This document shows positions 58,431 to 61,400 of a stretch of DNA of 64,000 nucleotides, piece by piece (position 1 is the first letter of the stretch; every line of letters starts with the position of its first letter). The stretch lies in assembly GCA_013265495.1 (NCBI GenBank), contig MU058198.1, positions 7,703,779 to 7,767,778 of the forward strand, given 5' to 3'. The position numbers and the translations under genes are program-made. Under the pieces are notes generated by a model. It did no database searches. It was not told the DNA's origin and worked only from the letters and a program-made list of their open reading frames with translations. The stretch is from Vicugna vicugna. Its lineage: Eukaryota.

Positions 58431-61400
58431 CCCGCCTAAATTTCCTCTCGGAGAGGTGGGAACTGAAAGGAACGGCCGCCTGAGGCCACACCCTCTCCCA
58501 ATCCTTTTCCTTTTCCTGCGGGGGAAGCGCCTCGTTTCCTGTACCGAGGAAATGATTTGATCTGGTCAGTGCGTCTTCCATGTGGCGTTTTAAAAGCGCT
58601 TTCGCTACCTTGGGTTCCCCGAGTCTCCCCACAGCTCCGAGGCAGGCAAGGGAAATAAAAGACTCGTTGGGAGCCATAGGGCCGAGGACTTGAGTACTGG
58701 TTAACTTGCCTCCCGAGGCAAGCGCTTTGATGATGATCTCTGTCGTTTGGGATCAAACAGCTCTCTTCTGATCAGCTGGCTTTGCACTAAAAGCCCCCTT
58801 TTCCGGTCTCCAAGACTGGCAATGGATGAAGAATGGCCTCTTGAGACATTCTTGTTCTTTGGGTTGAGAAAGTGGAGGCTGCATTCCAAATTCTGCCTCT
58901 GGCTAGAATTAAAACCTGTCCTGCTGAAGCATGTGTGTGACTTCAGCCTGATTGTTGGTGACACCTTCCTCGTTGAGCAGGTGTGAGAAGTAAGTGCTTG
59001 TAAATTTGTGCAGTTCTTGACATCAGTTTAAGTTGCAGAAAATTGTAGCTGTCCACCAAGACTCTTGGTTTTTCCAGTACTTAAGGCTTCTTGGTCTGTC
59101 TAGAAAGGCAGTTTTTCTTTGTGGTTCTTTATTGTAAGAAAACTTGACTTTGGTCTGCCAGCTTGCCCCTCTCAACTAGGGTTTCATGAGGAAATTTATG
59201 CCCTTTTGGGTAACATAGTTTTGTTTGTTTTCTTATCTGGGAGCCCTGAGGCTGGATTAAGGCCTTTAGTTCTAGTCTACTCTTAGGGATGGCTGAAGCT
59301 AATATAATCGTATTTTTCTTTTGCAGACTATAGTCAACAAGCAACCCAAAGGTGAGTGTCATTTCTGGGCTTCCAGAGTTTGTAGAGGGCCAGGGTGGCT
59401 AACGTGTCTTTTCCTGAGAGCGCTGTTTTTTTTTTCTCCAGCTATGGGGCCTACCCTACCCAGCCTGGGCAGGGCTATTCCCAGCAGAGCAATCAGCCCT
59501 ACGGACAGCAGAGTTACAGTGGTTATGGCCAGTCACCGGACACTTCAGGCTATGGCCAGAGCAGCTATAGTAGTTCTTATGGACAGACTCAGAACAGTGA
59601 GTCTCTTTTTTAGTGGGTCACCCCGCCTCTTCCTGTTCTTTCTGAATGTTGCTTTTCTTAAACCTAAGCAGTCCTGAAGTGTTGAAACTGTCCCATGTTG
59701 TTTTTCCCTTAATGAGTCTATGACCCTTAAAGCTCTTTGGAGTTTGAGTCCTTTCAAACAGAAAGGAAACCAACCTAATTGGGTTGTAATTGTTTTCTTT
59801 TATTTTGTTTTGACTTTTTATTTTTATTTATGCTGCACTTTCCCTATTTCCCCTAAGCATGAAAATGAAATGTGAGTGAGAGTATTCCCTAAAGGGAGAA
59901 AAGTTTTAGGCATTTGATACTTAAAGGGAGAAAATGATTTGTTTGATGTTTGAAGTTAGACTGCTGTATATTACATGAAACACAAGGAGATGGAATTTTC
60001 CCTGAGGTCCTGAAGTGTAAACAATATGGGTTGTCCTATTTGTATTGCACACAAACAGGCAGGTTAAATGCTGTTAATAGTAGGGATTTCTTGGGTTGTG
60101 ATTAGTGGTCCTGGAGGGTGGCTTTGGTGCGGGTGGGATGAGATGGGAACTCGAGCTGGTAGACTTCGGAACGTTGGCTTCGGGTAGAAGAGAAGGATAA
60201 CTCTGAGTTGCAGGGTTTCCAGGCAGCTTCTTAGAGGCTGACTTTCAAGTATGGGTAGCATTAGGTCGTATATAATGTTTTCTTCAACCCATTCCTTGCC
60301 TCTTTTTTTTTCCTCATAGCTTTTGTGATTTCCTTTTCTTTACCTTGTAGCAGGCTATGGCACACAGTCAGCTCCCCAGGGTTATGGCTCAACTAGTGGC
60401 TATGGCAGCAGCCAAGGTTCTCAGTCGTCTTACGGGCAGCAGTCCTCATACCCTGGCTATGGCCAGCAGCCAGCTCCTAGTAGCACCTCGGGAAGGTAAG
60501 GAGTTGTTGTGGGGGGAGAAGGAGAGGACTGAAAGGTTAGGGGTGACTTAGTAAGGAATGATTATATGATCAGCAATAGGAGTAATTATGGGAAGTAATT
60601 GGGAGGGAGGGGTCTCTATTGGGTACAGAGAATGGACTGTGCCAAAAGTGAAAGGACATTTTGGACATGCTGACATTGTAATTCTTTTTCTTTTTCCCTA
60701 GCTACGGTGGTGGTTCTCAGAGCAGCGGCTATGGCCAGCCCCAGAGCGGGGGCTACGGACAGCAGTCTGGCTATGGTGGACAGCAGCAGGGCTATGGACA
60801 GCAGCAGAGCTATAACCCCCCTCAGGGCTATGGACAGCAGAACCAGTACAACAGCAGCGGTGGTGGAGGGGGTGGTGGAGGTGAGAAGGTGTCTTCAGCT
60901 TTTTCTCATACCTGTTTTCTGTAAGGGTTTGTATTTTGCTTCACCCTTACCCTAAAAGTGTTCTTAAAACTTATGTTCTTGTTTCTTAACTTTCTTACTA
61001 TTTTGTTATCATTTATCTCTTGGCGCTGTTGAATTGATTTGTGCCACCTCGCAGTCTTTTTTTTTTTTTTTTCCTTAAAGCATCCTTTCTTTCCTGACAG
61101 GTGGCTATGGCCAAGACCAGTCCTCCATGAGTGGTGGCGGCGGCGGTTATGGTGGTCAGGACCAGAGTGGTGGCGGCGGTGGCTACGGGGGAGGCCAGCA
61201 GGACCGTGGGGGCCGCGGCCGGGGCGGTGGCGGCGGTGGTTACAACCGCAGCGGTGGTGGCTATGAACCCAGAGGTCGTGGAGGCGGTCGTGGAGGCAGA
61301 GGCGGCATGGGGTAGGTGTCTTGTGAGCCAGGGAGTAACATTAGTGGGAAATGTGGAGGGTTGCATGAATCTCCCTTAAAGCCAGTCTGTTAGTGCATGG

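Follow-up and report, generated by a model that had tools for sequence, protein, structure and literature searches.

The FUS gene of the vicuña holds a second long reading frame within its coding sequence, and the question raised by this locus is whether the frame marks a second protein maintained by selection or is imposed by the composition of FUS itself. In Brunet et al. (EMBO Rep 22:e50640, PMC7788448), human altFUS is described as a 170/169-amino acid open reading frame (ORF) in the +1 frame across FUS exons 3–6, with OpenProt identifiers IP_243680 and IP_243691. Its translation in human is reported by this one group, whose data comprise initiating-ribosome peaks, antibody detection and peptides (up to 7 in OpenProt and 28 more by PepQuery), with a FUS:altFUS ratio of 3.5:1 in human brain. 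Together with over-expression data from the same study, this expression speaks for genuine dual coding, in which altFUS is a conserved mitochondrial protein that acts in autophagy and mitochondrial dynamics and in which purifying selection preserves its sequence as well as the start and stop. As detailed below, dual coding in this sense is unlikely for the frame seen here, which is probably a tolerated by-product of the FUS prion-like domain.

The +1 frame of vicuña FUS

Exons 1–7 of FUS lie on the + strand of the 64,000-nt stretch of DNA analysed here (the window). Joined at canonical AG/GT junctions (Table 1), they encode the FUS N-terminus; adding the remainder of the gene from this contig brings FUS to 514 aa. 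The spliced +1 frame is free of stops from ATG 59444 to TGA 61128–61130 and encodes 168 aa, as the first-pass annotation had proposed; use of the downstream NAGNAG acceptor at 60354 yields 167 aa instead. The start codon, made of bases 2–3 of the Tyr14 TAT codon and base 1 of Gly15, is the first ATG downstream of the FUS ATG at 57749 and has the strong context claimed for it (G at −3 and +4); that of the FUS ATG is equally strong. An artefact of wrong splicing is ruled out, because two near-full processed FUS retrocopies of ∼91% identity align across all exon joins; both carry the longer exon-4 acceptor form.

Nine exon joins lie downstream of the altFUS TGA, that of exons 6 and 7 at a distance of 181 nt, so that translation of the +1 frame on a new mRNA could in principle trigger nonsense-mediated decay.

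Table 1. FUS exons, altFUS segments, FUS retrocopies and frame-switching protein models
Feature	Location	Strand	Remarks
FUS exon 1, coding part	57749..57761	+	ATG 57749–57751, G at −3, G at +4
FUS exon 2 (25 nt)	59327..59351	+	+1 frame open, 5′ of altFUS ATG
altFUS codons 1–51	59444..59596	+	within FUS exon 3 (59442–59596)
FUS exon 4	60351..60495	+	altFUS codons 52–100, codon 100 split; NAGNAG acceptor 60351 or 60354
FUS exon 5 (179 nt)	60702..60880	+	altFUS codons 100–159
FUS exon 6, start	61101..61130	+	altFUS codons 160–168 and TGA 61128–61130 (exon 61101–61311)
FUS exon 7 (35 nt)	62922..62956	+	
FUS retrocopies L005, L006, L011	G000:C2017, C6366, C3565		processed
Models with exon 6/8 switch			P0045, P0048, P0049, P0050, P0055, P0056, P0067, P0073, P0110, P0093, P0098

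Relation to described altFUS

The frame is the one reported for human altFUS, as first supposed: both occupy the +1 frame of exons 3–6, begin and end at the same sites, and come as a NAGNAG length pair (170/169 in human, 168/167 here). The predicted camelid protein differs in being two residues shorter. Judged by this correspondence it is the orthologue of the described altFUS, already tabulated and not new. By eye, it departs from the Vicugna pacos row of Table EV2 (PMC7788448) at 2/168 residues, and the two Camelus rows of that table are ∼95% identical to the alpaca row. Both alpaca-row differences (Leu/Arg and Thr/Met) are of the kind expected from FUS-synonymous changes, which would argue against dual coding. 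Alpaca and human altFUS are 74.85% identical according to the rows of the same table; the altFUS of the window matches a dog and a bat piece at 78/99 and 72/99 residues, respectively.

None of the three altFUS exon pieces (0/3) reaches the Pfam cut-off, another point against a conserved protein of its own; a weak match to DUF3761 (E 0.02) was rejected. A protein search with altFUS exon 3 returned three candidates, all unnamed short ORFs of 28–90 aa, which are mechanical gene calls carrying no evidence of expression. The two matches obtained in a metagenome scan for orthologous FUS DNA do not align to FUS.

A Vasu-type catalogue of nested alternate ORFs with a length of 150 codons or more, altATXN1 and altPrP included, counts 101 in human, FUS being among the validated cases (PMC9580016). 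In the passages of that source consulted, host codon pairs are given as the origin both of the +1 bias of such ORFs and of their basic character, and the frame described here resembles them in its +1 position and in a high pI set in this way. What differs is that those passages contain neither an argument based on Leu, Ile, Val and Met nor a comparison of species. No published argument of this kind for FUS was found in a search of largely open-access literature.

An open frame dictated by FUS composition

A stop in the +1 frame requires a main-frame codon xTA before A or G, or xTG before A, and only Leu, Ile, Val and Met codons provide them. FUS residues 2–181 contain none of the four, being restricted to G, Q, S, Y, P, T, N, A and D. 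Therefore, the +1 frame of the QGSY domain cannot close before Met182-Ser183. This Met is the first such residue past the FUS start, and its codon, with that of the following Ser (ATG AGT), creates the altFUS TGA. According to the genetic code, abolishing the TGA by a change of the Ser codon from AGY to TCN needs two substitutions.

Randomization leads to the same result. Over codons 14–180, no +1 stop appeared in 10,000/10,000 uniform synonymous recodings, 10,000/10,000 within-gene synonymous shuffles and 10,000/10,000 codon-order shuffles; the +2 frame has six stops. Thus, openness beyond what the main protein predicts was not found under any of the three null models. In the within-gene shuffles the first +1 ORF was 168 codons or longer in 84.5% of cases, with the same ATG start in 4,895/10,000 and the same TGA end in 5,984/10,000. 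The predicted pI of altFUS is 11.78 versus 11.80 ± 0.13 in shuffles, and its hydropathy is slightly higher (0.29 versus 0.22 ± 0.06), the latter a small point against a by-product of FUS. Scarcity of aliphatic residues extends to the FUS domains of birds, a rodent, a ray and the coelacanth, where a single Leu, Ile, Val or Met occurs in 7 × 150 = 1,050 residues.

Collectively, the FUS protein accounts for the open frame, for where it starts and stops and for its charge. The first-pass annotation had taken the agreement of both ends with those of a distant mammal to suggest constraint, and this is not supported, since the frame is open in 100% of the shuffles; its own caveat, that composition may keep the frame open passively, is what the data bear out. 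The altFUS frame in the window is no evidence for a second selected gene and is forced by the amino-acid make-up of FUS.

Start codons from Tyr-Gly pairs

The suspicion that Tyr-Gly (TAT GGN) repeats generate +1 ATGs proved correct for all 13 in-frame ATGs, every one of which arises from a [G/S]-Tyr(TAT)-Gly motif. G occupies positions −3 and +4 in 12 of the 13, and this strong Kozak context exists because the Ser/Gly-Tyr-Gly repeat dictates the flanking bases. Richness in ATG was considered as a sign of selection and rejected: before G, the third base T:C ratio is 13:4 at Tyr codons and also 13:4 at other NNY codons. The excess of TAT over TAC before G thus probably reflects CpG decay rather than selection for starts. 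Start context thereby joins openness, stop and pI among the properties that follow from FUS and that lend no weight to dual coding.

The paralogues EWSR1 and TAF15

EWSR1 (L023–L026, G000:C7503) and TAF15 (L018–L022, G000:C6686) were rebuilt from the same genome as a control. In both, the first downstream ATG falls in the +1 frame; it opens an ORF of 265 aa ending at Met294-Ser in EWSR1 and of 145 aa ending at Val165-Ser in TAF15, and the +2 frames are full of stops. The EWSR1 frame passes eight earlier Leu, Val or Met codons, none of which happens to make a +1 stop. Both resemble altFUS in frame, in their many Tyr-Gly ATGs and in ending at a Leu, Ile, Val or Met codon before A, which favours a by-product of composition over selection. 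They differ from it in length, and the start context in EWSR1 is weaker.

A frameshifted processed EWSR1 retrocopy (L027, G000:C3565:2952000–2958000) shares its contig with the partial FUS retrocopy.

Conservation across mammals

Table EV2 of PMC7788448 covers 84 species, with 67 mammalian rows by our count, and its residues were compared by eye. The table also includes rows that are not FUS, such as plant, fungal and protist sequences, Drosophila fusilli and a ubiquitin fusion.

Homologous Met starts are found in 58/67 mammalian rows (61 matching N-termini minus three non-mammals). Eight of the other nine rows have lost the start and the ninth, marmoset, is a gapped model in which the ATG is kept, so that 59/67 retain it. 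The start site reads TAC in the mRNAs of mouse, yak, bison, pig, pika, shrew and manatee, and the loss in cattle is taken from its row in Table EV2. Retention of the ATG in rat and sheep implies about six separate losses. As a consequence, the altFUS N-terminus is ∼19–53 residues shorter in 8/67 mammals, including mouse, whose row is devoid of the human N-terminus of ∼19 residues; such variability argues against dual coding. An internal Met at about residue 88, compared by eye, persists in 65/67 mammalian rows, more than the 59/67 of the initiator, and conservation of the start beyond such comparable sites was not found in the table. In favour of dual coding, the homologous ATG occurs in the frog and lizard rows too.

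The same stop ends 67/67 mammalian rows (by eye) and that of Anolis, as expected if altFUS were selected. This shared stop is, however, tied to the Met-Ser of FUS, which frogs and sharks do not have; in the frog rows, FUS Met-Gly is read as Trp in +1 and the frame runs on, as predicted. Phe, Tyr, Cys or Trp, which in altFUS would betray aliphatic or Phe substitutions of FUS that create no stop, occurs in only two mammalian altFUS rows (by eye), which indicates that aliphatic and Phe substitutions in FUS are avoided whether or not they make a +1 stop. The mean PhyloP score given in PMC7788448 is lower in the overlap, 2.6 versus 4. In our reading this is not what added purifying selection would give, and it counts against dual coding.

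A rough mutation model, blind to residue type and with the +1 frame unconstrained (dS 0.3, an assumed value; omega 0.1), was compared with these figures. It predicts an altFUS identity of 75.6 ± 3.3%, and the observed human–alpaca value from the Table EV2 rows agrees with it, as would be expected if dual coding did not constrain the sequence. Start retention is 85.5% in the model versus the observed 59/67 mammals, and the stop is kept in 94% of single lineages versus 67/67 rows. An internal +1 stop appeared in 22.5% of runs. Closure at this rate in a residue-blind model, a point against the by-product reading, means that an open frame needs selection against Leu, Ile, Val and Met, which we attribute to FUS itself.

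The retrocopies permit a further comparison. L005 and L006 are near full length with indels; L011, in which a large internal deletion has left only exons 1–4 and a portion of the 3′ half, was excluded from the site count. Synonymous differences from the gene common to both near-full copies number 2/107 sites in the overlap and 12/239 outside, a weak deficit in the direction of dual coding (one-sided P = 0.14) that is confounded by parallel CpG decay, as many of the sites are CpG. L005 has two +1 stops and L006 has lost the altFUS TGA.

Taken together, we consider it probable that the prion-like domain of FUS gives rise to the altFUS ORF as a by-product and that a minor basic product is tolerated. 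Tyr(TAT)-Gly pairs supply the 13 in-frame ATGs in a context that is good by necessity. Going by the results of Brunet et al. in human and mouse, some ribosomes may bypass the FUS ATG by scanning, or engage transcripts without it, and start at 59444 or at a later ATG. The predicted product, basic and of 17 kDa with a pI of 11.8, could reach mitochondria by its charge. It would be tolerated and would drift with the synonymous changes of FUS, with no selection of its own to maintain it.

Exon skipping and frame switching

A rather different proposal is that the frame logic matters and not the 168-aa product. Skipping of exon 5 or exon 7 returns +1 ribosomes to the FUS frame, and the outcome would be a chimera that lacks the prion-like domain and retains the RRM, zinc finger and C-terminus of FUS. 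In the window, skipping of exon 5 gives a chimera of 441 aa. When exon 7 is skipped, the +1 frame rejoins that of FUS, and from ATG 59444 onwards no stop other than TGA 61128 precedes that of FUS. Exon-7 skipping has been reported as FUS autoregulation (PMC3814325). The mammalian Met-Ser TGA would accordingly shut the route on the autoregulatory exon-7-skipped mRNA, and frogs and sharks, devoid of this TGA, would leave it open.

Some public protein models have this structure. Among 24 examined of the 120 listed proteins with a FUS RRM, 14 vertebrate FUS models combine an altFUS-like N-terminus with the FUS frame. In nine frog and two shark models (Table 1), all from taxa without the Met-Ser TGA, the frame changes precisely at the exon 6/8 join; models from bat, dog and rattlesnake (P0047, P0057 and P0077) switch at the exon 4/6 join, to which the 441-aa chimera of the window is equivalent. 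Other frame switches, in cobra (P0063) and seal (P0038) models, were set aside as probable model errors.

These patterns favour the frame-logic proposal, but the chimeric models are automatic predictions (six were traced to RefSeq ‘isoform X’ or UniRef entries), and they are exactly what a gene-finder would yield by picking the longest ORF of a transcript bound for decay. Moreover, the stop can be lost only if the FUS protein itself changes, and its persistence may thus be due to FUS alone. No paper on an altFUS–FUS chimera was found in the search of largely open-access literature. We regard the proposal as quite improbable. Equally doubtful is its corollary of a natural FUS isoform in which the basic altFUS sequence replaces the prion-like domain and the RRM, zinc finger and nuclear-localisation end are retained. 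Under this model, frogs and sharks would make the isoform from exon-7-skipped mRNA, mammals would keep only the exon-5 route (441 aa), and the targets of selection would be the stop and the phases of the exons, not the 168-aa protein. If it were true, FUS lacking the prion-like domain would be made from a splice form destined for decay.

Implications

As a discovery the vicuña frame adds little, camelid altFUS sequences being already tabulated (PMC7788448), and its value is cautionary and testable. The published conservation argument for altFUS (open frame, 75% identity and shared ends) is what the FUS protein itself predicts. As the mouse row of Table EV2 is devoid of the first ∼19 residues, mouse and human FUS models carry different altFUS. 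More generally, any Tyr-Gly-rich, aliphatic-free domain, such as those of FUS, EWSR1 and TAF15, will have a long +1 ORF with strong starts. This is relevant for over-expression and recoding experiments, and for the interpretation of ‘synonymous’ variants.
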